Positions 2,673 through 45,148 of a DNA stretch of 64,000 nt are shown here, piece by piece (position 1 is the first letter of the stretch; every line of letters begins with the position of its first letter). A program made the position numbers and the translations under genes. The stretch covers positions 15,277-79,276 of the forward strand of contig JBJHDK010000002.1 in the NCBI GenBank assembly GCA_050486505.1, in the 5' to 3' direction. Source of the DNA: Fibrobacteria bacterium. GTDB taxonomy: Bacteria; Fibrobacterota; Fibrobacteria; UBA11236. Under the pieces are notes generated by a model that was not told where the DNA came from, searched no databases, and was given only the letters and a program-made list of their open reading frames with translations.

Positions 2673-4643
2673 TTACAGGTTGAGGGAAAGACCGAGCGAC
2701 CAGGTCCGACCGCTTCGGGGACTGTAGACGAAGTCCCGATACTGTCGGTCGGTGAGATTTCGGACATCGAGGGAGAGTCTGATCGGGCCGCGATGCAAGG
2801 CACCGTGGGCACCCCACTCCACCTCGGCATCCCGGCGCGATACGGGAAGGTTGGCTTCGCCCGGATACCATGGGCTCCGGAAACCGAGCGTCGGTCCCAG
2901 GCGCGCGCCCTCGAACGGCTTGGCGAAGAATCCCGCGTGCGCCTCGACGGGACTGTGGTGCGCGGGGCGGTTTCCCGCGTGCAGTCCCTCGGTGATCTCC
3001 GCGCGCGACAGGGCGGCCGATGCCGCGGCTTCGAAACGGCGCGAATCCCATCCCCCTGAAAGTTCAAGACCGCGCACTTGGTAATCCGCACGGTTCTCGT
3101 ACAGCAGAAAGGGAGAAGCGCCGCGCGCGCCAAGGCGGATCGGGTCGGTGTGAAGATTCCAGTATGCCTCCCAACGCGCGCTCCATGCCCCATGACCGAG
3201 GCCGTGCAGGATCGAAACCCCCGACGTTTCCTCCGGGCGCAGCGCTGTGTTCGCCTGCACGCCGTGGTTGTCGCCCAGCAATTCGCCGGAAGAAGGCGCG
3301 CGCTGCTCATGCTTGGCCACGGCCGCGAAGATCCCCACGGTCGTTTGCCATTGCAGTGCGGCACGCAATGTGGATGGCATGCGCGCCACCGAGACCCGAT
3401 CTCCCTCGGGTGCGTCGGGATAGGCGCGCACCGCATCGGCATCGAAACGCACCGCCGCCGCCCGCGCCTCCAGCGTTGCGTTCAGGAACGGCGTGATGCC
3501 GTGATCCATGCGCCACCCGAGCAGTGCCTCCAGCCTGCGCCCCGCGGGCGCGGACATGTTTTGCGAAAACGGCGTTTCGCGCGGATCGACGGTTTCGGCA
3601 CGCAAATGAGCGTCCGTCGCGAAGGCCAGTGTCCCGGTCAGCGGAAGCCGCGCGCGCGCGTCCACCCCGGCGGATGTCGAGACCCGTTCCAACGCGTGCG
3701 AGAGATGGCCCAGCGTGCGACCGGGATCGCGATACGCGTCGGTGGCGCGATGCGCCTGCACGCCCGCCTCCCAGGACATGATCTCACCGTGATGCCGCGC
3801 GCGCCAGGCCCCCATCCATGCCTCGCGCACCGTGTAGGCGCTTGATCCGGTGCCGAGCAACCCGGGATATTCCTTGCGCGATTCCAGCCAAAGCAGGGAG
3901 ACGTCCTGGCCAAAAAACCCGTTTCCGGCGCGGGCCGAGGCACGGACCCCCCGGCTCCAGTACCCGTTGTTCCGCATGCGCGTGACACCGTCGTCGTCCG
4001 GATTGTGGATCGTGCCGTTGTCGTTGAACCATGGGTAATCGTTGCGGGCATGCTGGCCCTGCACACCGATCGACCATTGCGTCACCCCGTTTCCGCGAAC
4101 GGTCACGGCGGACTCCGCGGTTCCATGCGAGCCACCCCGGGCGTGCGCTTCGGTTCGGTCGGCACCGTGGGAGGACAAATCGATGCGGGCCAGCATGCCG
4201 GAACCGACGACGTCGGGATCGACCCCGGTGCGCGCCTCCAGCGACGTGAACCAAAGCAACGGCCACTTGGAAAGATCGGGCGCGGGGTCGCCATCCTGGT
4301 TGAGGCGCATTCCGTCGACGTAGATCTCGATGGATGAGGCGCGCGCGCCGCGAAAACTCAATTCGGAGTAGCCGCCCAGCCCGCCCTGCCGGCGCACGCG
4401 AAAACCCGGCAACGAAGCGATCGCATCCTCAAGGGTCGCGAAACGGCGCAGGGCCTCGCCCTCGATGCGATGCGTGTCGGGTGAGGAGGACTCACTGCTG
4501 CGGCCGTACGCCTCCGTTCCCGGCAACTCGAGCGCTTCGGGCGTGACGCCATCGTCCGCGGCGACGGAAACCGCAAGGACAAACGGCACGGCGCGGGCGA
4601 AGGTCCGCGCAAAGATCCGCTTTCCCGTAGGGACGTGCGGCAT
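2673..4643 (-). CDS. TonB-dependent receptor (probable BtuB-like cobalamin transporter)
   Basis: Plug motif LPGFRVRRQGGLGGYSELSFRGA...IYVDGMRLN; C-terminus VRNLTDRQY...GRTWSLGLSLNL; ATG 4643 with GGAAGG RBS; downstream of cobalamin riboswitch. Confidence 0.88.
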   Translation of the reverse strand: MPHVPTGKRIFARTFARAVPFVLAVSVAADDGVTPEALELPGTEAYGRSSESSSPDTHRIEGEALRRFATLEDAIASLPGFRVRRQGGLGGYSELSFRGARASSIEIYVDGMRLNQDGDPAPDLSKWPLLWFTSLEARTGVDPDVVGSGMLARIDLSSHGADRTEAHARGGSHGTAESAVTVRGNGVTQWSIGVQGQHARNDYPWFNDNGTIHNPDDDGVTRMRNNGYWSRGVRASARAGNGFFGQDVSLLWLESRKEYPGLLGTGSSAYTVREAWMGAWRARHHGEIMSWEAGVQAHRATDAYRDPGRTLGHLSHALERVSTSAGVDARARLPLTGTLAFATDAHLRAETVDPRETPFSQNMSAPAGRRLEALLGWRMDHGITPFLNATLEARAAAVRFDADAVRAYPDAPEGDRVSVARMPSTLRAALQWQTTVGIFAAVAKHEQRAPSSGELLGDNHGVQANTALRPEETSGVSILHGLGHGAWSARWEAYWNLHTDPIRLGARGASPFLLYENRADYQVRGLELSGGWDSRRFEAAASAALSRAEITEGLHAGNRPAHHSPVEAHAGFFAKPFEGARLGPTLGFRSPWYPGEANLPVSRRDAEVEWGAHGALHRGPIRLSLDVRNLTDRQYRDFVYSPRSGRTWSLGLSLNL

Positions 4644-4706
4644 GATTCCTTCCTTCCGCGGGGCTGGGCCGCGGAACGATTGTCTGCGTCTGTCGAGGGG
4701 GCGGGC

Positions 4707-4734
4707 GTAGGGGCAAATAATCATTTGCCCCTAC
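4707..4734. repeat. GTAG-type REP-like palindrome
   Basis: GTAGGGGCAAATAATCATTTGCCCCTAC; differs by one base from copies at 48978 and 63809. Confidence 0.85.
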
Positions 4735-4769
4735 ATCGCCCGCCCTCGTCCCGAAGAGCAGCGCGTGAA

Positions 4770-5007
4770 CCCGCAGGTGAGTCTTCTGGCTTGCGGCGGG
4801 AACCCCTGTTGGGGGGATCCGGAAGTCTTCCGCCTTCCCGCCCGGCGCCCCGTTCCCCGAAGGGGGGGGATGGCCTGGACAGTGGCTGGCGCGCGCAGTT
4901 GCGGGCGCCGGGAAAACATCAACCGCTTACAGCGACGAGCTCGCTCCCGATTCGCACGGGATTCCTCGTTATGCCCTTCCGAACCGTTCGGAGGGCTCCC
5001 TGTGAGC
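4770..5007 (-). ncRNA. Cobalamin riboswitch
   Basis: Minus strand reads AGGGAG...AACGAGGAATCCCGTGCGAATCGGGAGC...GCTGTAA...GCCACTG...GGGAAGGCGG...AAGCCAGAAGACTCACCTG (B12-box), upstream of a TBDR. Confidence 0.92.
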
Positions 5008-5045
5008 GAATGGAATAGTAGTCAATGCGGATAGCGGGGCGTCAA

Positions 5046-34243: not shown

Positions 34244-34711
34244 ATGGAAATGGATATCGGATTGGCCAAAAAAGACCGCCAAAAGATTGCAACGGGGCTG
34301 TCGCGCGTTCTGGCGGACAGCTATACCCTCTATCTCAAAACGCACAATTTCCATTGGAATGTGACCGGGCCGATGTTCCAGACTCTCCATCTGATGTTCG
34401 AGACGCATTATACCGAACTTGCCGTGGCGGTGGACGACATCGCGGAGCGCATTCGCGCCTTGGGGCACCCCGCACCCGGAACCTACAAGGCGTTCGAAAA
34501 ACTCTCTTCGATTCCGATGGAGGACGGCGTACCGAAGGCGACTGACATGATCCGCTCGCTGGTCAAGGGCCACGAGGCTGTGGCAAAAACCGCCCGCACC
34601 GCCTTCGTTGACGCGGATGCCGCTGGCGACGAGCCCACGGCCGACCTCCTGACCCAACGCATGCAGGTGCATGAGAAGACCGCGTGGATGCTCCGCAGCC
34701 TGCTGGAATAA
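34244..34711 (+). CDS. dps: Dps family ferritin-like protein, copy 1
   Basis: [51 protein letters not shown]. Confidence 0.96.
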   Translation: MEMDIGLAKKDRQKIATGLSRVLADSYTLYLKTHNFHWNVTGPMFQTLHLMFETHYTELAVAVDDIAERIRALGHPAPGTYKAFEKLSSIPMEDGVPKATDMIRSLVKGHEAVAKTARTAFVDADAAGDEPTADLLTQRMQVHEKTAWMLRSLLE

Positions 34712-34854
34712 TTACGAATTAAGAATTACGAATTTAACGCAGATGTCGCTGCCGCATGAAGAGTCCGTGCGCCATGCAAACGTGAATCGCCGAAGTCCGA
34801 GTTCAAGACGCCGCCCTTCATTCGTAATTCGTAATTCGTAATTCTTAATTCTTA
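34710..34854. repeat. Inverted pair of heptamer tandem arrays
   Basis: AATTACG/AATTAAG x3 at 34710-34735 and ATTCGTA/ATTCTTA x5 at 34820-34854, between convergent genes. Confidence 0.85.
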
Positions 34855-36294
34855 TCGCCTGCGAATCTTCTCAATGATCCCGGTGGTCGAAAGCCCCGGG
34901 ATTTTTTCGACCACGTGAATGCGGCCGCCATGGCTGCGCACGAGCGGCGCCTCGATGCAGTCGGTACCGTACTCGGAGCCGTTCACGTGCACGTCGGGCC
35001 TGACTTCGTCGAGAAACGGCATCGGCTCCTCCTCGTCGAAGACATGCACATAGTCCACGCAGCGCAAGGCGAGCAGCATGCGCGCCCGTTCCGCCTCGGG
35101 CACAAGCGGGCGATCCGCCGACTTGTAGCGCTTCACTGAGGCGTCGCTGTTGAGACCGACGATCAGCACGTCACCCTGACGCTTCGCTTCTTCAAGGATG
35201 TGAAGGTGTCCCGCGTGCAGCAGGTCGAAGGATCCGTTCACGGTCACGATGCGCTTCGCCTGCTTGCGCAGCAGCATCGCAAGCGCAGCCAGGCCCGCAC
35301 GCTCGACCAGCCGGGTTCCGTTCAATGAATCCTGCAGCAACTCCTCGCGGGTGACGGTCGCGGTTCCCAGTTTTCCGACCACGATCCCTGCTGCGCGGTT
35401 CGCAAATTCTGCGGCGTCGCGGATCGATAACTTCGCGGAAATTCCGAGGACGAACGCCGCAGCGACCGTGTCCCCGGCCCCCGAGACATCGAAGATCTCC
35501 CGCGCCGATGTCGGCAGGCGAAAGCTTTCGCCGGAATCCCGGTCGAAGAATGCAAGGCCTTCGGGCCCCAAGGTCAATAACACGTGCGACGCGAACCGCT
35601 TTCGGAGGGCATCCCCTGCCGCCGACACCTTTTCGGGGGATGCTTCGCAGGCATCCCACCCCAGAAGCCCGAGCGACTCCTTCCAGTTGGGCGTCACGTA
35701 GTCGACTCCCCGATAGCGCGAACCATGCTGCGGACGCGGATCGACCAGCACCGGAATGCCGGCGCCCCGCGCGACCTCGAGGATTGCACGCGCGAGTTCT
35801 TCCGTGAAGACCCCCTTGGCATAGTCGGAGACCACGATCGCGCGCGCATCCGACAGGTGGCGGCGCGCGGACGCCAGGATCGCACCTGCCAGTTCCGATG
35901 AAATTTCCGTCGTGTCCTCGCGGTCGAGGCGAAGCAATTGCTGTCGCTGCCCGACCAGCCGTGTTTTGGTCAACGTCGGCCGGCCATCATCGAAGGCCTC
36001 CAGCCCGATGTTCGAGGCCGCGCACAACGCATCGAAAGTGATCCCGGCAACGTCACGTGCATTTCGCAGGGTGAAAAGCACTGGTTCCCCGCCCAAGGAC
36101 GCGATGTTCGCGGCCGTGTTCGCGGCACCCCCCAGTACCTGCCGGGTCTTCCCGGGGTCAACCCGCAAGATGGGAACAGGGGCCTCCGGAGAAAGACGCG
36201 AGCAGTCGCCGGTGAGATATTCATCCACCATGCTGTCGCCCAGCACAAGAATTTTCGCTCCCCTGATGCGGGTCAGCGCGTCGCGCATGTCCAT
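34852..36294 (-). CDS. hldE: Bifunctional heptose-7-phosphate kinase / heptose-1-phosphate adenylyltransferase
   Basis: RLSPEAPVP, GGAANTAANI, SDYAKG, DVSGAGDTV, NGSFDLLHAGH, VGLNSDASV. Confidence 0.94.
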   Translation of the reverse strand: MDMRDALTRIRGAKILVLGDSMVDEYLTGDCSRLSPEAPVPILRVDPGKTRQVLGGAANTAANIASLGGEPVLFTLRNARDVAGITFDALCAASNIGLEAFDDGRPTLTKTRLVGQRQQLLRLDREDTTEISSELAGAILASARRHLSDARAIVVSDYAKGVFTEELARAILEVARGAGIPVLVDPRPQHGSRYRGVDYVTPNWKESLGLLGWDACEASPEKVSAAGDALRKRFASHVLLTLGPEGLAFFDRDSGESFRLPTSAREIFDVSGAGDTVAAAFVLGISAKLSIRDAAEFANRAAGIVVGKLGTATVTREELLQDSLNGTRLVERAGLAALAMLLRKQAKRIVTVNGSFDLLHAGHLHILEEAKRQGDVLIVGLNSDASVKRYKSADRPLVPEAERARMLLALRCVDYVHVFDEEEPMPFLDEVRPDVHVNGSEYGTDCIEAPLVRSHGGRIHVVEKIPGLSTTGIIEKIRRR

Positions 36295-36373
36295 GGGGGT
36301 CAATTCTATGAAAATTCGAAGCGCCGGACCCCACGAACCGCGATGTTTCGGCTGTAACTACATTCCGCCGACG

Positions 36374-36847
36374 ATGTTGCGGATGAACCATCGCTTGCGT
36401 GCCGGCGGAGTTGCGTGGGGAATTTGCCTCCTCTACGTGCTTTTCCTGTTCGCGCCGCGCTTCGAGCTGTTCTCCCACGTCCATGAGCATGGGGATCGCC
36501 CCCATCATCACGGTTTCCTGAGCGCGCACGACGCGGTCTTGCAACAAACCGTGCGCGCCCTCGGGGAGGCACCTGCACCGAAGGGTTCTTCCGGGGCGGG
36601 ATCCGCCTCCGCAAACGCCCTCCTGCCCCTCGAGGCGGGCGTCGCCGGAGTGGCCCCCCAAAAGGGCATCGTGCATTCCCACTACCAGGAAGACCCCAAT
36701 CTTCTGGGGCTGGGAAGCGATCCCTCCCGGATTCCGGAGGCGCGGGTGTTCCCGCCCGCCGTTCCGCCGGCGGAGCGCCCTGCCGCCACCGCGCATGTCG
36801 CGGCCACGGCGCGCGCGCCACCGTCCCCCGCTGCCGCGGTCGCCTGA
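36374..36847 (+). CDS. His-rich membrane-targeted leader protein with C-terminal RAPP motif (DUF2946/CruR-like architecture)
   Basis: Hydrophobic N-terminus, HVHEHGDRPHHH, HSH, Pro/Ala-rich linker, ARAPP seven codons before the stop. Confidence 0.75.
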   Translation: MLRMNHRLRAGGVAWGICLLYVLFLFAPRFELFSHVHEHGDRPHHHGFLSAHDAVLQQTVRALGEAPAPKGSSGAGSASANALLPLEAGVAGVAPQKGIVHSHYQEDPNLLGLGSDPSRIPEARVFPPAVPPAERPAATAHVAATARAPPSPAAAVA

Positions 36848-36923
36848 CGACCTCGAGCGACGTCCCGAACGCGCCTCCGATCGGAGTACGCGTGACCCAT
36901 GCCATCCTTCCAGGAGAACCGAG

Positions 36924-37694
36924 ATGCCCCTCTCGATCCGCAGGCCCGTCCTGTTCCATCGCTTCGTGCCCTTCGCCGCGGCTTGGGCGCTCGCCCTCGC
37001 GGGCTGCGCCACCGATGCCGACGTGCGTCCGCGCAACGGAGTCATCGACTTCCACATCGCCGCGGGAAACGCCGGTTTCACCACCCGCCTCGGTGCGGAT
37101 TCCCTCGTCTGGAACCTCGACGCCGCCCTCGCCACCGTGGGCGAAATCGGCATCCACTGGGAACGGCTTCTCGCCAAGCCGGCGCACGACGTCCCCGGAG
37201 GCAGGCCTTCGCCCAAGATCTACGAGTATTTCGCCGTTGATTTGTTGCGGACACAGGCATTGCAAACCATCGCGGTCCCCGCGGCGATCTACGACCACGT
37301 CCACATGATTTTCCGGCCGGCGAGTGAAACAACCCGCGGCATCGACTCGCTGCCGGCCTTGCTGGGGCACAGCCTGTATTTCTCGGGAACCGTCACGGAT
37401 GGAATCGACACATTGCCGTTCCGCGTCGAAATCGACAGCACGTATCGCGAGAACGACCTCGGGGATGCCGTCTTCAGCCTCCAGGTCCTTGCGGACCAAC
37501 GCTATCGCATGTTCCTGGCTCCGGAGCTGGATCTCTGGTTCTCCGGAATCCTGCGCGGCGACCTTGTGCCCACGGCGGGGGACACCGTCGTCATCCGCCA
37601 CGACAACGCAAACCGGCCCGCCGCGCTCAAGCTCGAAACCCGTTACACCCTGGACAACGCCTTCGGCGTGATGGTGGAAGCGCATGCGCCTTGA
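36924..37694 (+). CDS. Hypothetical lipoprotein (possibly DUF4382-like)
   Basis: AGGAG RBS, lipobox LAGC; FAVDLL motif shared with 39883-40764. Confidence 0.78.
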   Translation: MPLSIRRPVLFHRFVPFAAAWALALAGCATDADVRPRNGVIDFHIAAGNAGFTTRLGADSLVWNLDAALATVGEIGIHWERLLAKPAHDVPGGRPSPKIYEYFAVDLLRTQALQTIAVPAAIYDHVHMIFRPASETTRGIDSLPALLGHSLYFSGTVTDGIDTLPFRVEIDSTYRENDLGDAVFSLQVLADQRYRMFLAPELDLWFSGILRGDLVPTAGDTVVIRHDNANRPAALKLETRYTLDNAFGVMVEAHAP

Positions 37695-39807
37695 CCTCGC
37701 ATGCTTCCGGGACGTCTTCGAGCGCCTGACCCTCGCCGTGGGATTCCTCGCCATCTCTGCGATGGCGGCGGGAGCACACCCATCCGCAGCAGCGGAAGAT
37801 ACCACCGGTGCCGACCTGGAATTCGAACCGCATACGGTGACCGGCCGGGAACGCGACACCACGGCATCAAGGCCCTACCGGACACGCGTCACGGATCGCG
37901 GGGATCTGGATCGCGCTGTTTCCAACAACATCCTCGACGTGCTCGACCGGCAACCCGGACTCTTCAAGCAAATCGACTGTTCCGTCTGCAACACCGCGCA
38001 GATCCGGCTGCTGGGGTTGAACGGAGCCTACACCCAGGTGCTCGTCGACGGCGTCCCGTCCCATACCGGGCTCTCCATGATCCACGGCATCGAGCAAATT
38101 CCCCTCGCCAACATCGAACGCATCGAGGTAATCCAGGGCGTGGGCAGCGTGCGGCACGGCGGCAACGCCGTCGCGGGCATCATCAACATCGTCACCGCCC
38201 GACCCGGCCCGGTGCCCGAGGCCAACGTCTCCGTGCGGTACGGCGACTCCAACGAGCAGGACTACCAGGCATCCTATTCGGGTATGCATGGCGGCAAGGG
38301 CGTGCAGTTTTCCTTCGCCAAGCACTCGAGCCCGCAAATCAATTCCGACGGCAACCACGTGTACGATGTCGCGGAATTCGACCGCTCCACCTTCTCGGGG
38401 CGGTTGTCCGTGCCTTTGGGAAGCCGGGTTTCCCTCTTCTACGCCTTTCAGGCGGGAAGCGAGGAACGATTCGGGGGGACCGTGTCCAGTTCACGCCGCT
38501 GGATAGGGGACTTTCAACCCGAGTCCACCTTCACCGACGGGTTCGGCCAGACCGTGACGCAGCCATTGATTTATCAGGAGTACGTGCAAAGCCGCCGCGT
38601 GAGCTACGAGACCGGATACACCGCGCATCTTGATGGCGGACTCGTGCAAAGTTCCCGCATCAACTTCACCGAGCACTACCAGAACGGGTATTACGGTTAT
38701 CAACACTTGGAAGCCAAGCAGCGCCTGTTGTTCGTTGAGAACGATTGGACCTGGTACCGGCCCCGGCACGAAATTTCCCTGGGTGCATCCTACCAGGACG
38801 ATTCCTTCCGCGACAACCGCTCGCTCGGAAATCACTCCCACCGCGTGCCCGCGCTCTATGCACAGGACATCTGGAATCCCGCAGACGATTGGCGCGTGCT
38901 GGCGGGCGTCCGCGGCGATTTCCACAACGTGCATGGGCTGCTGTTTTCTCCGCGCGCGGGCCTCCACTACGGAGGCATCCCCGAGCTCGGCTTGCGCATC
39001 AACGCGGGCGCAGGCTTCCGCACCTTCAACCTCTTCAGCGAGGATCACGCCGCCGTCACCACTGCGCTCTACGTTCCGGACCCACTGGACGGACTCGATG
39101 CCGAGCGCTCTTGGTCGGTCGTGACGGGAGCGGAATGGTTCCCCCTCGCCCGCACAAACACCTTGTGGAACGTCGTGCTTGATGCCTCCGCTTACCAGAC
39201 CTGGATCACCGGGTTCATCCAGCCGCGCTACCTGCCGGAGTTCACCGTGGATGGACGACAGCGCGTGCGCTACGAGAATCTTGACGGCCGCACCGTCGCG
39301 CGCGGCCTGCAGCTGACCGGGGAATTGACGTCTCCGTTCGGCCTGGAGTTCGACGGGGGAATCAACCTGCTCGACAATTACAACACGCGAAGCGGGGAAC
39401 AGACGCGACTTTACAACACGCCGCGCCACACGGCTTCACTGGCCGCATCGCAAACCTTCGCGCGCACGGGTACGACCCTGCTGGCCGATGCAGCGCATGT
39501 CGGTCCGCAACGACTGCGCGAAGTACGCTTCGGCCCTCCGCCGGAGAGCGGGCCCGACGACGGCCTCGTGCAACCGGAGCGCGAGTCGGAATCCTATCGG
39601 ATTTTCAATGCCGGAATCGAGCAACGATTGGGAGCCTTCGTGGCCTCGCTCTCGGTGCGCAACATCGGGGATTTTTACCAGGCCCGGCGCGAACCCGTGT
39701 TTTACTCACACGAATACAACGTCATCACCAACTCCGTATTCGCCCCCCTCAAGGGGCGATCCATCCACCTTGGAATACGCGGCCGGTTTCAGGCCGGAAA
39801 CTTTTAG
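37684..39807 (+). CDS. TonB-dependent receptor with CxxC in the plug domain
   Basis: QPGLFKQIDCSVCNTAQIRLLGLNGAYTQVLVDG, IERIEVIQG..S..HGGNAVAGIINIVT, PRAG, VRNI, GRSIHLGIRGRF. Confidence 0.93.
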   Translation: MRLDLACFRDVFERLTLAVGFLAISAMAAGAHPSAAAEDTTGADLEFEPHTVTGRERDTTASRPYRTRVTDRGDLDRAVSNNILDVLDRQPGLFKQIDCSVCNTAQIRLLGLNGAYTQVLVDGVPSHTGLSMIHGIEQIPLANIERIEVIQGVGSVRHGGNAVAGIINIVTARPGPVPEANVSVRYGDSNEQDYQASYSGMHGGKGVQFSFAKHSSPQINSDGNHVYDVAEFDRSTFSGRLSVPLGSRVSLFYAFQAGSEERFGGTVSSSRRWIGDFQPESTFTDGFGQTVTQPLIYQEYVQSRRVSYETGYTAHLDGGLVQSSRINFTEHYQNGYYGYQHLEAKQRLLFVENDWTWYRPRHEISLGASYQDDSFRDNRSLGNHSHRVPALYAQDIWNPADDWRVLAGVRGDFHNVHGLLFSPRAGLHYGGIPELGLRINAGAGFRTFNLFSEDHAAVTTALYVPDPLDGLDAERSWSVVTGAEWFPLARTNTLWNVVLDASAYQTWITGFIQPRYLPEFTVDGRQRVRYENLDGRTVARGLQLTGELTSPFGLEFDGGINLLDNYNTRSGEQTRLYNTPRHTASLAASQTFARTGTTLLADAAHVGPQRLREVRFGPPPESGPDDGLVQPERESESYRIFNAGIEQRLGAFVASLSVRNIGDFYQARREPVFYSHEYNVITNSVFAPLKGRSIHLGIRGRFQAGNF

Positions 39808-39882
39808 CGACACCCCTGTTCACCCCACCCGAAAGGACAACCCGTGACAGACGCGCATCCAACCCGAACGAAAGGGAAAGAC

Positions 39883-40764
39883 ATGGCACAGACCCCTCGA
39901 AATACATGGTCGCTGACCACAATGACAATGGCATCGGCATTCGCATTGGCGCTTGCCGGATGCTTCAGCACCGACAACAAGAAGGAAGACGGTCCCGGTA
40001 CCATCGAATTCCGCATTCAGGGTGAAGACATTCCGTACCACAATCTTCTCGGTGAGGACGACCTCGGTTATGTGTACGCGGATTCGGCCACCATCGAGTA
40101 TGCGTACATGATCGTGCGCTCGCCGAAGTTGAACCCCGCGGGACACGGCCACCATCACTCGCTCGCGAAGACCGGTGCGACGCTACATTCGGGTGTCAAC
40201 CTTCCCGGTTTCTTCGCGGTCGATTTGCTGCAGGGGGCGACGCTCGGTACGGTTGAGGGCGTGGATCCGGGAAACTACGGGATCAACCCGGAGATCACGA
40301 TCTATCCGGCCAATGCTTCGGAGCGGGCGGGAGACAACATGACGGATTTCAACGAAGCGCTGGCGCAGATCCCCGAGGGGTACTCTTTCCGGTTCGGCGG
40401 GATGTTGTACATGAAGGACACGGCCGTGGGCGCGGTGCGCTATGAGGTCCGCCAAAACGTCGCGGGCATCGTCTCGATCGAGGAGTTCCCCCCGGATGGG
40501 GGCGACGGCACGCCCCTCGTCGTGAGGCCCGGCAAAACCCTCGTGGCCAGCTTCCATCCGCACATCGATCATGCGCTGGAAGTGCTTGCGGATGAAAACC
40601 AACTGGATTGGGCGTCGTTGGAGATGTCGGGAGACACCGTGGTTTTTTCCCCCGCGACGAACAACCTCGTCCTGGTCGGTAGTGACAGCGTGAATATTTA
40701 TCAGGCGCTCGAGGGCAAGATCAAGCAGGGCGACCACTGGGATGTAAACGTCATTCCGGATTGA
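39883..40764 (+). CDS. His-rich hypothetical lipoprotein
   Basis: Lipobox LAGC; GHGHHH; FAVDLL; HPHIDH. Confidence 0.8.
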   Translation: MAQTPRNTWSLTTMTMASAFALALAGCFSTDNKKEDGPGTIEFRIQGEDIPYHNLLGEDDLGYVYADSATIEYAYMIVRSPKLNPAGHGHHHSLAKTGATLHSGVNLPGFFAVDLLQGATLGTVEGVDPGNYGINPEITIYPANASERAGDNMTDFNEALAQIPEGYSFRFGGMLYMKDTAVGAVRYEVRQNVAGIVSIEEFPPDGGDGTPLVVRPGKTLVASFHPHIDHALEVLADENQLDWASLEMSGDTVVFSPATNNLVLVGSDSVNIYQALEGKIKQGDHWDVNVIPD

Positions 40765-40798
40765 ACGTCCCCGGATGGCGGCGCGGCTCTCGACTGGC

Positions 40799-41773
40799 CT
40801 ACAGGGCCAACCGCCGTGCCAATGCAAGGAGCTCGCGATCGAGCTCCTTTTTCTTTCCGACCGCGTCGGCGAAGGGGACGAGTACCATCTCGCCGCCCGC
40901 CTCGCCGGCCATCTTGCCCGTCTCGCCCGCCATCGCGGAGCGTACCGCATACGCGCCGAGGCGCGTGGCAAGCAAGCGATCGCGCGCGGTGGGGGAGCCG
41001 CCGCGCTGCATGTGCCCAAGCACCGACACGCGATAGTCGTCGCCGGTGATTTTTCGCATTTCCTCGGCAAGCGCGGGTGCGCCGCCGGGGAAGGCTCCTT
41101 CGGCGACCACGACGATGCTGCTCGTCTTGCCCGCCTTGCGGCCCCGATGCAGGCGATCGCATGTCGCCTTGAGGTCAACCGGATCCTCGGGAACAAGCAC
41201 CTCTTCGGCGCCGCCGCACAGCGCGACCTGCAGCGCGATGAAGCCGGCGTGCCGACCCATCACCTCGACGAGGAAGTAGCGCTCGTGCGATTCGGCCGTG
41301 TCGCGGATCTTGTCGATGGCCTCGAGCGCGGTGGTCACCGCAGTATCGTAGCCGATCGTTTCCTCGGTGCCATACAAGTCGTTGTCGATGGTCCCGGGAA
41401 GCCCGAGCACGATGCCGTCCCAAACCTCCTGCAGGGCCATGCACCCCGTCAGCGTTCCGTTCCCGCCGATGGCGATCAAGGCGTCGACGGCATGGGCGCG
41501 GAGGGTTTCCGCTGCGCTTGCCAGCCCCTCGGGGGTTCCGAACTCCGGGCAGCGCGAGGTGCGTAGCACCGTACCGCCGCGCTGCACGATGTTGGAGACG
41601 TCGCGCGGCCCCAAAGGATGCAATTCTTCCTTCAGCAAGCCGTAGTATCCGCGCTGAACCCCAAGGACAACATGCCCCAGCGAACAGGCTTCGCGCACCA
41701 CGCCGCGCACCGCGGCATTCATTCCGGGGGCATCCCCCCCGCTGGTCAGGACTGCGAATCGTAGATGTGCCAT
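40799..41773 (-). CDS. pfkA: ATP-dependent 6-phosphofructokinase
   Basis: LTSGGDAPGMNAA, GGTVLRTSR, PGTIDND, EVMGRHAG, LGHMQRGG. Confidence 0.96.
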   Translation of the reverse strand: MAHLRFAVLTSGGDAPGMNAAVRGVVREACSLGHVVLGVQRGYYGLLKEELHPLGPRDVSNIVQRGGTVLRTSRCPEFGTPEGLASAAETLRAHAVDALIAIGGNGTLTGCMALQEVWDGIVLGLPGTIDNDLYGTEETIGYDTAVTTALEAIDKIRDTAESHERYFLVEVMGRHAGFIALQVALCGGAEEVLVPEDPVDLKATCDRLHRGRKAGKTSSIVVVAEGAFPGGAPALAEEMRKITGDDYRVSVLGHMQRGGSPTARDRLLATRLGAYAVRSAMAGETGKMAGEAGGEMVLVPFADAVGKKKELDRELLALARRLAL

Positions 41774-41909
41774 GGCGAAAGAGTAAGCATTTCGCGCTTT
41801 CACCGACATCTTCCCGAATTCACGCGCCGGATTGCAAGCCCTGCCTTATCTTAACCTTTGCCGGCCGCATGCAGCGGCGCGCGAAAGCACCGGACATCAA
41901 GGAGGCTCC

Positions 41910-42356
41910 ATGAGTGGACTCGTCGATCTCGGAAACCGCATCCTGAACATTGCACCATCCTGGTCCTGGCTGCCGCCCCTGCTGGCGCGTATCGCGATGG
42001 GCTGGGTATTTATCACTTCGGGTCTCGGAAAGCTGCAAAACCTCGACAGGGTCACCGGCTTTTTCAACAGCCTCGGAATTCCGGCTCCCGGAGCGATGGC
42101 TCCTTTCGTCGGCACGGTCGAACTTGTTGCCGGCGTGCTTCTGATCGCGGGACTCGCGACACGCCTCTCGGCCATTCCTCTCGTCATCATCATGGTCGTC
42201 GCGCTCCTGACCGCAATCGGCCCGAGTGTCGAAGGACTGCGCGGGCTGTTCGGCACACAGGAATTTCTGTACGTCATCATGCTGATCTGGCTCATGGTCG
42301 CGGGCCCGGGCCCCGTCTCCATCGATTCGAAGGTATCCGGCAAATACCGAAGCTGA
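41910..42356 (+). CDS. DoxX family membrane protein
   Basis: LARIAMGWVFITSGLGKL, ELVAGVLLIAGLATR, GPGPVSID; AAGGAGG RBS. Confidence 0.92.
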   Translation: MSGLVDLGNRILNIAPSWSWLPPLLARIAMGWVFITSGLGKLQNLDRVTGFFNSLGIPAPGAMAPFVGTVELVAGVLLIAGLATRLSAIPLVIIMVVALLTAIGPSVEGLRGLFGTQEFLYVIMLIWLMVAGPGPVSIDSKVSGKYRS

Positions 42357-42380
42357 GAGGATCACCATCCACGCTTCCAG

Positions 42381-42407
42381 GAGCCGCCCCACCAGGGCGG
42401 CTTTTTT
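42381..42407 (+). terminator. Rho-independent terminator
   Basis: GAGCCGCCC-CACCA-GGGCGGCTT-TTTT. Confidence 0.75.
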
Positions 42408-42478
42408 CTGCGTGTCCCGGCAAAATCCCCGAAAATCGCGCGGGTTGGCGAAGCCGACCCCCACCTCCAAAAAACCAC

Positions 42479-42507
42479 TTGACATTGAATTAGAATCATT
42501 CTAAACT
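42479..42507 (+). promoter_or_regulatory. sigma70 promoter overlapped by a PerR/Fur-type 7-1-7 operator
   Basis: TTGACA-N17-TAAACT; perfect palindrome TTAGAAT-C-ATTCTAA at 42490-42504. Confidence 0.85.
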
Positions 42508-42513
42508 ATGGGC

Positions 42514-42924
42514 ATGGCACCGCTTCTCACCAAGCACCGCGAGACGATCCTCACCGTGGTTCAGTCCAGCAAGGACCACCCCACGGCGCGGCAGGTTTTC
42601 GAGCGTTCCCTGAAAAAGGATCCGCGCTTGAGCATGGCGACGGTGTACAACTCCCTGAACTTCCTGACGAGCGGGGGCTACATCCGCCGCATGGAAGCGG
42701 GCGAGGAAGGAACGCGCTACGACGGAATCCTCGCACGGCATGACCACCTGATCTGCCGCCAGTGCGGCCACATCGAAGACGTGGACGTTCTTCCCTCGGA
42801 CAAGGCGCGCGTCGCGTCCTTCCCGCATTTCCAGGTCGAAGAGGTCACGCTACGTGTGACGGGACTGTGCGCCTCTTGCCGCAAGCAGTCCCGTCAAGGC
42901 AATGGAACCGCAATCACGCCCTGA
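42514..42924 (+). CDS. perR: Fur family peroxide-responsive repressor
   Basis: [31 protein letters not shown]; upstream of dps-ahpC; alternative ATG at 42508. Confidence 0.85.
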
Positions 42925-42941
42925 GTTTTTTTGGAATCACG

Positions 42942-42956
42942 TTAGAATTAGTCTAA
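42942..42956. promoter_or_regulatory. Second PerR-type box, upstream of dps
   Basis: TTAGAAT-T-AGTCTAA; one arm mismatch relative to the 42490 box. Confidence 0.75.
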
Positions 42957-42973
42957 ATCAATTGGAGGTCCCC

Positions 42974-43450
42974 ATGAAAGCACCCACCATCCAGATCGGC
43001 ATCAAGGAGGCGGACCGCAAGAAGGTCGCCGAAGGGCTTTCCCGCGTGCTGGCCGACAGCTACACGCTTTACCTGAAAACGCACAACTTCCACTGGAACG
43101 TGACCGGTCCAATGTTCCAGACCTTGCACCTCATGTTCGAGGAGCAATACACGGAACTCGCCACGGCCGTGGACACCATCGCGGAGCGCATCCGCGCCCT
43201 CGGCTTCCCGGCCCCGGGAACCTACTCGGCATACGCGAAACTCTCCTCGATCTCAGAGGAAGAGGGCGTGCCCGAGGCGAAGGAAATGATCCGCTTGCTC
43301 GTGCAGGGAAACGAGGCCGTCGCCCGTACGGCGCGCGAAACCTTCCCCGCCGCGGAGAAGGCCGGAGACGAACCCACCGCCGACCTGCTGACCCAGCGCA
43401 TGCAGGTCCACGAGAAAACCGCGTGGATGCTGCGGTCGCTGCTGGAATAG
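42974..43450 (+). CDS. dps: Dps family ferritin-like protein, copy 2
   Basis: Same Dps ferroxidase motifs as copy 1; GGAGG RBS. Confidence 0.96.
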
Positions 43451-43454
43451 ATGT

Positions 43455-43483
43455 GCAGGGGCGACGCATGCGTCGCCCTCAAC
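43455..43483. repeat. REP-like palindrome
   Basis: GCAGGGGCGACGCATGCGTCGCCCTCAAC. Confidence 0.7.
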
Positions 43484-43528
43484 AGAGAGCCAACCACACA
43501 GAGTCACCCAAACGAAAGGATCCATCAC

Positions 43529-44116
43529 ATGTCAACCCTCGTCACCAAACCCGCGCCCGCGTTCAAGGCCAAGGCCGTGCTGCCCGACGGCAGCTTCGGC
43601 GAAGTCGACCTCGCACAGTACCGCGGCAAGCACGTCATCGTGTATTTCTACCCGCTGGCGTTCACCTTCGTGTGTCCGACCGAAATCATCGCCTTCGACA
43701 AGAAGATCGAGGAGTTCAAGGCGCGCGGCTGTGAAATCGTCGGCGTCTCCGTCGACTCGCACCACACCCTCGCGGCCTGGCGCAACACGCCGGTCAAGGA
43801 GGGCGGCATCGGCGCCATCCGTCACCCGGTGGTGTCCGACCTGAACAAGCAGATCGCACGTGACTACGGCATCCTCTTCAACGAGGAAGTCGCCCTGCGC
43901 GGACTGTTCCTGATCGACAAGGAGGGCGTCGTGCGCCACGCGCTGGTGAACGACCTGCCGCTCGGCCGCAGTGTGGATGAAGCCATCCGCACGCTCGACG
44001 CACTGCAGTTCTTCGAGGAGAACGGCGAAGTCTGCCCGGCCAACTGGCACAAGGGCGACGAGGCCATCAAGGAAACCCGCGACTCCGTGGGTGCGTACCT
44101 GGCGAAGTCGGCCTGA
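43529..44116 (+). CDS. ahpC: Typical 2-Cys peroxiredoxin
   Basis: FYPLAFTFVCPTEI, ALRGLFLID, GRSVDE, GEVCPANW. Confidence 0.95.
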   Translation: MSTLVTKPAPAFKAKAVLPDGSFGEVDLAQYRGKHVIVYFYPLAFTFVCPTEIIAFDKKIEEFKARGCEIVGVSVDSHHTLAAWRNTPVKEGGIGAIRHPVVSDLNKQIARDYGILFNEEVALRGLFLIDKEGVVRHALVNDLPLGRSVDEAIRTLDALQFFEENGEVCPANWHKGDEAIKETRDSVGAYLAKSA

Positions 44117-44365
44117 CCCTTCCGGTCTTCCGCACGCTTTCGACGAAAGTGATGCGGGGGACCCCCTGTAAGCAAGCCTGCCCCCGCGCTGCGACTACGG
44201 AGACAAAGCGGGGGCGCAACGGAGGGGGCCGGAGCCAATTCGGTTCTCCGTTGCCAGGAGGCTCCGGATCCGTCCGGAGCCTCCACCGTTTTCGCCCGTC
44301 GCAGCGCACGAAGCCGCGGCGGATACTTATGATGTTTGCGTTCGCCCGCGAAAGGAAGTGCGCGC

Positions 44366-45148
44366 ATGGACATTTTCTGGATCGCGGTCCTGGCCAGCCT
44401 TGCCGCGGGCGCCGCCACGGGACTTGGGGCGCTTCCGGTTCTTTTCTTCCGCACACTGTCCGCACGCATGCGCGACGGGTTCCTCGGCTTCAGCGCAGGC
44501 GTCATGCTCGCGGCGTCGGCGTTCTCCCTGATCATCCCCGGAATCGAAGCCGCTTCGGAGCGCACGGGCACGACGATCGCCGCGGTCATCGTCGGTGCGG
44601 GGATCCTGCTGGGCGGCGGCTTCGTTTGGTTGATCCACGCCTTGGTGCCGCACGAGCACTTCGTGAAGGGGGCGGAAGGGACGACGGTTGCCGAGGCCCG
44701 CAAAATCCGTCGCATCTGGCTGTTCATCCTCGCCATCGCGGTCCACAACCTTCCCGAGGGACTGGCCGTCGGCGTCGGATTCGGAGGAGAAAACATCGGA
44801 AACGGAGTCGCCCTCGCCATCGGCATCGGGCTGCAAAACCTGCCCGAGGGTTTCGCTGTGGCGGTCGCATTGTTGGGAATCAAGGGAATGACGCCCTGGA
44901 GGGCGGCAGGCATCGCTTTGCTGACGGGCCTGCTCGAGCCCGTGGGCGGAGCGATCGGCGCCGGGCTTGTGACGACGTCGGTCCTGCTGCTTCCGTGGGG
45001 ACTCGCCTTCGCGGCCGGGGCGATGCTCTTCGTCATCAGCAACGAGATCATCCCGGAGACTCACGCGCAGGGGAACGAGCGCGAGGCCACTGCAGGCCTC
45101 ATGATCGGCTTCGTCGTGATGATGGTTCTCGATGTGACCTTGGGCTGA
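44366..45148 (+). CDS. ZIP family metal transporter (GufA/ZupT-like)
   Basis: GFSAGVML, PHEH, HNLPEGLAVG, QNLPEG, AAGAMLFV..EIIPE. Confidence 0.94.
   Translation: MDIFWIAVLASLAAGAATGLGALPVLFFRTLSARMRDGFLGFSAGVMLAASAFSLIIPGIEAASERTGTTIAAVIVGAGILLGGGFVWLIHALVPHEHFVKGAEGTTVAEARKIRRIWLFILAIAVHNLPEGLAVGVGFGGENIGNGVALAIGIGLQNLPEGFAVAVALLGIKGMTPWRAAGIALLTGLLEPVGGAIGAGLVTTSVLLLPWGLAFAAGAMLFVISNEIIPETHAQGNEREATAGLMIGFVVMMVLDVTLG

Follow-up and report, generated by a model that had tools for sequence, protein, structure and literature searches.

A candidate metal-sensing arrest leader with histidine ligands precedes a probably swapped lipoprotein–TonB receptor–lipoprotein operon in a Fibrobacteria genome

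An open reading frame of 157 amino acids was analyzed in a 64,000-nt stretch of DNA from a Fibrobacteria bacterium (assembly GCA_050486505.1, contig JBJHDK010000002.1, positions 15,277–79,276 of the forward strand). The whole stretch is termed the window and its genome G000 (a 2.4-Mb assembly, 63% GC, 99% complete). The open reading frame heads three co-oriented genes that encode a lipoprotein, a TonB-dependent receptor (TBDR) and a second lipoprotein. Sequence comparisons suggest that it is a leader which probably acts as an arrest switch of the type known from CruR (Bp2923) of Bordetella pertussis (PMC9426467), with histidines in place of cysteines, that it is likely to sense nickel, and that it would turn the importer encoded downstream off when the metal is plentiful.

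The leader (positions 36374..36847, + strand) displays a predicted membrane helix (residues 10–26 in the structure model, with a hydrophobic segment at about residues 13–28), two histidine clusters, a Pro/Ala linker and a RAPP motif. The first cluster, HVHEHGDRPHHH at 36476..36511 (+), has the form HxH-x6-HxH (His35, His37, His44 and His46). The second is an HSH (His101 and His103; 36674..36682, +), which is followed by QEDPNL and lies 44 residues before the arrest Arg. RAPP (Arg147–Pro150; 36812..36823, +) is found seven codons ahead of the stop. The export signal was judged from hydrophobicity and from the model; a PP pair is present within the last 15 residues, and the metal-binding type motif is of the His-only kind. 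The start is either Met1 or Met4, and neither is preceded by a clear Shine-Dalgarno (SD) sequence. A spacer of 76 nt (36848–36923) separates the leader from lipoprotein 1 (256 aa, 36924..37694, +), which is followed by the TBDR (707 aa, 37684..39807, +) and lipoprotein 2 (293 aa, 39883..40764, +). All of these features, i.e. the open reading frame, its His clusters and RAPP, the spacer and the three genes, are present where the first-pass annotation of this DNA had placed them. The leader is enclosed in a longer open reading frame of the same frame (311 aa, 35912–36847), which runs antisense to hldE.

In a genome with 63% GC, a RAPP-like tail can by itself be due to chance: 94 stop-to-stop frames of at least 70 aa in G000 carry R[AG][PG]P within 16 residues of their end. 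Because such tails are common by chance, and because the spacer folds like shuffled sequence (see below), the case for the leader rests on conservation. A single-sequence search with the leader yielded 3 homologues among 872 candidates. Genome searches matched 12 of 208 genomes, three of them weakly and without confirmation, and 15 of 39 genomes in a second set. Weak matches, i.e. family f5, G005 and a second G001 match, were left out of the counts; no His-rich RAPP open reading frame was seen in the f5 loci that were opened. A profile built from 11 leader sequences found 67 representatives (clusters at 50% identity) among 1.84 billion proteins. With the tail removed, the profile still recovered 57 of the 67 at E<1e-3. 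Of these, 49 carry R[AG]PP no more than 20 residues from the end (RGPP in 33, RAPP in 16). The other 8 are truncated, frame-shifted, longer-tailed or carry RDPP. In an alignment of 58 full-length members (12 of 70 proteins were excluded as fragments, as tail-less or for long end extensions), the arrest Arg and both Pro are kept in 58 of 58; His35 is kept in 57 and each of the other five His in all 58. The proposal that the His cluster and RAPP would prove conserved in homologues is thus borne out by this search, the six His being near-invariant.

None of the 58 aligned members has a CxxC. The leader matches no Pfam family at E≤0.1, none of 10 homologues has PF11162 (DUF2946) among its listed matches at E≤1, and no protein of G000 is over the PF11162 cut-off, the best match being elsewhere than the leader. 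The comparison with DUF2946 by HMMER, which had been suggested as a check, therefore gave no match for the leader or for the 10 homologues. The family appears to work like CruR, yet is not a DUF2946 member. A language-model search gave, as leads only, look-alike clusters without a name from Myxococcota and Nitrospirota, as well as clusters of DUF6769 from Bacteroidota. A second hydrophobic stretch lies between the last HxH and RAPP in 18 of the 58 leaders (P0006, P0022, P0026, P0029 and others) and is not found in the window leader.

The distance from the last HxH to the arrest Arg was counted without alignment in 70 proteins. Six of these lack the motif; among the 64 scorable ones it is 45 residues in 53, 44 in 10 and 43 in one. 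In 11 further loci it is 45 in nine and 46 in two. The two His clusters themselves are 29 to 80 residues apart, depending on the family member (~55 in the window leader). This freedom shows that the profile search, which prefers collinear sequences, does not force the ruler-like spacing. In CruR the distance from CxxC to RAPP is also 45 residues and is conserved within one or two residues; an increase by five impairs copper control (PMC9426467). Given the equal spacing, the second HxH occupies the position of the CruR CxxC. The leader resembles CruR, as described in that source, in being the first gene of its operon, in its export signal, in the C-terminal RAPP and in having ligands about 45 residues before the Arg, and further in a stretch with more C than G, a long spacer and a TBDR downstream. 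It differs in having neither a PF11162 match nor a CxxC, and in its six His, which form two clusters separated by about 55 residues. The cargo differs as well, i.e. lipoprotein–TBDR–lipoprotein here and TBDR–PepSY for CruR, and so does the metal, with clues to nickel here and copper there.

Other leaders were seen beside this family. The homologue in G001 (L042, ~4120–4670, −) displays an expanded HSHSHPHSHSH after its first cluster, and its ruler distance is still 45. G016 has a second leader (L018:9529-9861), back to back with the His leader, that has RGPP, with HAH and CQLC 44 residues before the Arg and no Pfam match; it heads a porin-like gene and a ZnuA/ZnuB-type ATP-binding cassette (ABC) cluster, and a similar ABC cluster is present at G000:C14. 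A leader in G012 (L020:1881-2273) has RGPP and CAPC 46 residues before the Arg, and the genes after it encode a lipoprotein and a ZnuD-like receptor. In G028 (L038:10833-11279) a Cys-pair leader ending in RSGPP precedes TolC-like and CusB-like genes. An unrelated His-rich RGPP leader in G290 (L074:6052-6474) precedes a receptor with CNNC in its plug and ExbB/ExbD-like genes, and the same CNNC-plug receptor type in G282 is downstream of DtxR-like and FeoB-like genes with no leader (labels from sequence in both cases).

An AlphaFold model of the leader displays helices at residues 10–26 and 51–64 and just two strands, 30–36 and 100–106. As the model has no other strands, these two must pair with one another, and such pairing would bring both His clusters together. 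A structure search with the model found no fold match. In the mechanism proposed, the ribosome would stall at RAPP when metal is absent and would shield the C-rich stretch, so that Rho would be unable to load and the operon would be transcribed. When metal is present, the His-bearing strands 30–36 and 100–106 would close on the ion as the second strand exits the ribosome tunnel, the pull from this closure would release the stall, and Rho would then end transcription within the spacer. In the His version, with its 45-residue ruler, a two-part site would thus close at the tunnel exit. Two questions become testable with this family: whether metal-driven folding provides the pull that releases a RAPP arrest, and whether such leaders are specific for nickel. 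In the literature searched, copper is the only metal for which sensing by an arrest peptide has been demonstrated, and the ligands there are Cys.

An export signal combined with RAPP is also the layout of a secretion monitor (PMC12992588), and the leader could be read as one that monitors protein export in the manner of SecM, ApdA or ApdP, its histidines having no sensing role. This is very improbable, as the six His are conserved as strongly as the arrest motif, and, among the 16 leaders for which the next gene was seen, none is followed by sec or yidC.

CruR regulation has been described as Rho acting at a bubble with more C than G (PMC9426467), and arrest by CruR has been demonstrated in vitro (PMC12992588). 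In the window a stretch with more C than G covers the leader 3′ end and the spacer (36750..36923, +) and is a candidate Rho loading site. Over the 50 nt past the leader stop, all 12 intact leaders have more C than G (mean +7.2), as compared to a mean of −1.4 (sd 7.3) for C minus G in 179 gaps of the G000 genome. The spacers of intact leaders are 76–188 nt long, and a Rho gene is over the cut-off in G000. The C-rich spacers, together with Rho, favour a termination like that of CruR, and an arrest switch with the polarity of CruR is considered quite probable. Two Rho-like genes were seen in G000 (G000:C22:5077-6303 and G000:C81:4970-6058), one above and one below the TIGR00767 cut-off.

Several observations weigh against such a switch. 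The C over G excess in the window is +5, which is equalled by 21% of the control gaps, and the control itself is one genome with a crude open reading frame caller. The excess is highest around the stop codon, where Pro/Ala codons inflate C on the coding side. The confidence of the leader model is modest (pLDDT 67, pTM 0.36). Lastly, at L099:5361-12708 a leader homologue heads a resistance-nodulation-division (RND) efflux operon that is followed by a HupE/UreJ-like gene (label from sequence), which suggests the opposite polarity at that locus.

The latter locus touches on a translational switch of the SecM or CutF type, in which the stalled ribosome, with a stall that is possibly induced by metal, would open a hairpin over the lipoprotein SD. 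CutF works by SD opening (PMC9973294), and the homologue that heads an efflux pump also speaks for such a switch. In the window the SD (AGGAG, 36912–36916) sits in a 4-bp hairpin with TCCTTCCAGGA (36905–36915) over it, and the CTCC of an upstream hairpin (36869–36893) could pair with it. The calculated cost of opening the ribosome binding site falls by 2.7–5.3 kcal/mol on stalling in G013, G016, G018 and G025; however, the change is less than 1 kcal/mol in 6 of 12 leaders, and in the window the cost is 8.4 kcal/mol when free and 7.6 with a stalled ribosome, a drop of 0.8 (two start sites in this run were misplaced by one base). The stall footprint in the window ends about 75 nt ahead of the SD. 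The spacer hairpins are real base-pairings, with a stability not above that of shuffles (z = 0.22), and metal-induced expression suits an exporter, not an importer. Thus the SD switch is weak, and the SD-pairing hairpin that the first-pass annotation saw as the switch is not supported, in view of the small change in opening cost; a translational switch is regarded as improbable for this operon.

The genes behind the leader differ from those in its relatives. In 12 of these (G001, G008, G010, G012, G013, G015, G016, G018, G025, G026, G028 and G030) the leader lies directly before another TBDR, which has a GGKANQ...HGHGQGY plug and is the usual receptor of the family. Of the HGHGQG-plug TBDRs in the order, 12 of 13 carry the leader directly upstream. 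(G025 is from unpublished data. G026, with a lost tail and a broken receptor, is in the synteny count and out of the spacer and spacing counts; G027, a fragment without receptor, enters only the urease comparison below, where it counts among the genomes with a leader.) Among 224 candidate metagenome loci, three have the leader, one before the usual receptor, one before the RND efflux operon and one at a contig edge. In all, the gene after the leader is a lipoprotein in the window, a TBDR in 13 homologous loci and an efflux adaptor in one. In three loci metE lies directly behind the usual receptor (L015:8257-8477 in G013, L014:8269-10620 in G008, and L098:3749-4372), once with its own cobalamin riboswitch.

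No HGHGQG-plug receptor was found in G000, and the window receptor, which has CSVC in its plug, is absent from 60 relatives at E≤1e-40. The slot is bordered on the left by a divergent hldE-like gene (PfkB plus cytidylyltransferase; 34852..36288, −) and on the right by a convergent pfkA (40799..41809, −). It holds the leader and the usual receptor in G001, G008, G010 and G012, and the leader with lipoprotein–TBDR–lipoprotein in G000; it is empty in G004, G005 and G009, and in G004 and G009 pfkA and hldE are immediate neighbours. The pair of lipoprotein 1 and CSVC receptor was found in 4 of 295 other genomes of the phylum, all of one distant family and all leaderless. In G264 a second contig has lipoprotein 2 as well, following the end of the receptor, and in G267 the same cassette region is on two contigs (L068 = C8, L075 = C19) and was counted once. 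A genome-wide pattern scan for the window receptor gave 3 loci among 96 candidates, two of them titled Chitinivibrionia bacterium; these were kept out of the count, as they may come from genomes already included. A plasmid search with the window receptor gave 4 distant receptors (24%–26% identity) without CSVC.

Because 12 relatives carry the leader before another TBDR, and because the cassette is leaderless elsewhere, the three genes are probably a later acquisition that took the place of the receptor usual for the family. Such a swap would show the leader to be a portable control module, and it points to an uncharacterised importer made of a receptor and lipoproteins. The nascent-chain sensor envisaged at first stands as a conserved analogue of CruR, with His for Cys and with RAPP, before an envelope operon for metal import. 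The conserved synteny with CxxC TBDRs that went with it is not supported, since the TBDR is a different one in 12 relatives and the other carriers of lipoprotein and CSVC TBDR, 4 of 4, are leaderless; nor is the SD switch.

The swap may also be read to mean that the leader is a remnant from the time of the earlier receptor, with the cassette on its own promoter or expressed by read-through and not regulated by the leader. In keeping with this, the cassette has no leader in its other carriers, the slot is variable, being empty in three genomes and holding other cargo in G001, G008, G010 and G012, and broken leaders are present in G026 and G027. Yet in the window the six His, RAPP and the spacing are all intact, and in a diverged strain (X2) none of 9 listed leader differences (23 in the contig) alters His101, His103, Asp107, Asn109 or Leu110. 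No sigma-70-like promoter was found in 36200–41000, either for the cassette or for the leader, and a 76-nt spacer leaves little room for one. A vestigial leader is improbable in view of both sides.

With respect to the cargo proteins, the TBDR is over the cut-off for Pfam Plug PF07715 and barrel PF00593 and shares 42%–44% identity with leaderless orthologues from another family, found in four genomes. Its plug displays DCSVCxTA (CSVC at 37978–37989), and DCSVC is invariant in 5 of 5 receptors. It is over the cut-off of none of the NCBIfam TBDR equivalogs listed, the best among the matches listed having 73 bits as against cut-offs of at least 223; BtuB and siderophore receptor types were compared, and models for OprC and ZnuD are absent from the 25 equivalogs listed. 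The solved structures that match the TBDR are generic plugs only.

Lipoprotein 1 (lipobox LAGC, Cys28) has conserved GIHW, HD, HxH and END motifs and is predicted to form an MbnP-like beta-sandwich. Its model (pLDDT 76) was built from 5 sequences. MbnP of Methylosinus trichosporium (PDB 7L6G) is the best match of this model by Foldseek (probability 0.98, TM 0.42, E 4e-3) and the top match in a second structure search (Z 9.9, next 8.7, over 189 residues with a root-mean-square deviation of 3.8). Lipoprotein 2 (lipobox LAGC, Cys27) is a distant paralogue of lipoprotein 1 (E 2.8e-4), with GHGHHH at 40141–40158 (+) and a conserved HPHxDH at 40555–40572 (+); its language-model neighbour is PF20243 at 0.93, with low recognition. 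Both lipoproteins, one of them modelled, appear to have the MbnP fold, and they are likely to be metal-catching partners of the receptor. The genes of MbnP are likewise neighbours of TonB receptors (PMC3621798). MbnP is defined, however, by a WxW kynurenine motif and an MbnH partner (PMC11951088, PMC3621798), whereas the two lipoproteins are paralogues that flank the receptor, have neither WxW nor a Pfam match, and have no MbnH peroxidase among their neighbours.

As to the metal, nickel is somewhat favoured for the leader. Among 32 genomes of the family, NikR_C is found in one, G002, and G000 has no NikR match. G002 has an HGHGQG-type TBDR at the same hldE slot without a leader, and this TBDR has an operator-like site that matches 12 of 14 positions of a perfect palindrome lying 153 nt before cbiM, 5 kb from nikR. 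Nickel is thus likely for the leader because the only NikR genome has a nickel-type TBDR at the same slot, leaderless and with an operator-like palindrome. The leader family thereby provides a natural control, NikR with operator versus leader, at one slot and with one receptor type. Three plasmid regions with relatives of the usual receptor were opened, and in two of them the relative lies next to nikR, i.e. in Afipia (pHCG3B, among hyp genes) and Methylocystis (pGW6_1). These NikR-controlled TBDRs are related to the usual receptor at 45%–50% over the plug; they differ from the window in that control is by a DNA-binding repressor and in that the window receptor is of another subfamily, and that they transport nickel is deduced from annotation. 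In G028 the leader has a cbiM-like permease cluster as its neighbour, and in G013, G015 and G018 the neighbour is a His-rich DsbD_2-type permease (labels partly from sequence reading). Urease is present in G000, in which NiFe hydrogenase and NiSOD gave no match.

A number of points count against nickel. As the operator pattern was derived from the site at the G002 TBDR, its match to the palindrome is partly by construction; the pattern has no match in the Afipia or Methylocystis regions, and the exchange of NikR for the leader rests on a single genome. Urease is not enriched with the leader (12 of 14 leader genomes, 11 of 18 others; Fisher p = 0.23). Neither NikR nor urease was found in any of the four other carriers of lipoprotein and CSVC TBDR (G264 being 69% complete), which argues against the cargo as a dedicated nickel importer. 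In G016 the leader and a zinc-type ABC cluster stand back to back.

The same arrest switch may instead sense or import zinc, copper, cobalt or manganese, at least for the swapped cargo, and this is a real possibility. Sites with several histidines bind several metals. The Cys pair of the plug and the MbnP-fold lipoproteins recall copper systems, the NikR-less and urease-less carriers just mentioned are in agreement with a different metal, and so are the zinc-type cluster that G016 has beside its leader and the metE genes behind the TBDR in G008, G013 and L098. Against these stand the NikR exchange at the same slot, nikR beside the usual TBDR and the neighbouring permeases of Ni/Co type. For the copper site of MbnP, neither WxW nor MbnH is present; for cobalt, CbiC is found in 1 of 39 genomes and not in G000, so that there should be little demand for cobalt in B12 synthesis. 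No Fur box upstream of the cassette or leader was convincingly above shuffles; the best, 13 of 19 in G264, was reached by 47 of 300. That the window cargo imports nickel is doubtful. The fullest proposal, that the arrest leader of the family replaces NikR as nickel sensor at one slot, and has here captured an unrelated importer, a Cys-plug receptor with two MbnP-fold His lipoproteins, which would bring in nickel for urease, is unlikely as a whole. If true, the cassette would be an undescribed outer-membrane nickel uptake machine.

Related systems have been described. CutF of Rhodobacter capsulatus undergoes a copper-dependent stall at PPP, which opens an SD hairpin for a detoxifying oxidase; like the leader it is exported and has metal ligands and a Pro-rich tail (PMC9973294; bioRxiv 10.1101/2025.02.05.636593). 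His-only CutF-like proteins form sequence similarity network clusters 14 and 17, beside HupE/UreJ, with predicted nickel or cobalt sensing (PMC9973294). These clusters were obtained with a filter of <150 aa and lie before HupE/UreJ, whereas the window leader has 157 aa and lies before an outer-membrane importer. Upstream open reading frames with RAPP/RGPP before TonB receptors are a described class across Gram-negative bacteria, and the leader shares with it a small secretory or membrane protein, a C-terminal RAPP/RGPP and a position ahead of a TBDR (PMC12992588). As described there, the class names no His-only family, metal or link to NikR (PMC12992588); it may include relatives of the leader. 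A new metal-uptake system in the strong sense is therefore not supported, both the His-only CutF-like clusters (PMC9973294) and the RAPP/RGPP class (PMC12992588) having been described. What the leader would add to a known kind is the His ruler, the exchange of NikR for a leader, and a swapped, uncharacterised importer. In the literature searched, most subscription papers being outside reach, no report of a nickel-sensing RAPP leader or of CxxC-plug receptors was found.

The junction of leader, spacer and lipoprotein is present on one contig with zero differences in run X1 (possibly the source), and in run X2, from another study, it is present on two contigs that overlap. The X2 receptor differs from that of the window at third codon positions in 21 of 23 listed differences. 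A terminator-like hairpin with a T run (40826..40849, +) lies inside the pfkA 3′ end and is a consensus match only. Downstream of pfkA (window 41910–45148) are DoxX, a Fur-family regulator, Dps, AhpC and a ZIP transporter, and a second Dps is left of hldE (window 34244–34711); the leader slot is within a peroxide/metal stress region kept across the genus. A neighbouring gene in the window scores above the threshold of TIGR02147, which describes a family of paralogues in Fibrobacter, and this makes a host from Fibrobacterota probable. A cobalamin riboswitch (Rfam) at window 4759–5018 (−) lies ahead of a TonB-receptor-like open reading frame at 2673–4724 (−), which is probably a B12 importer.

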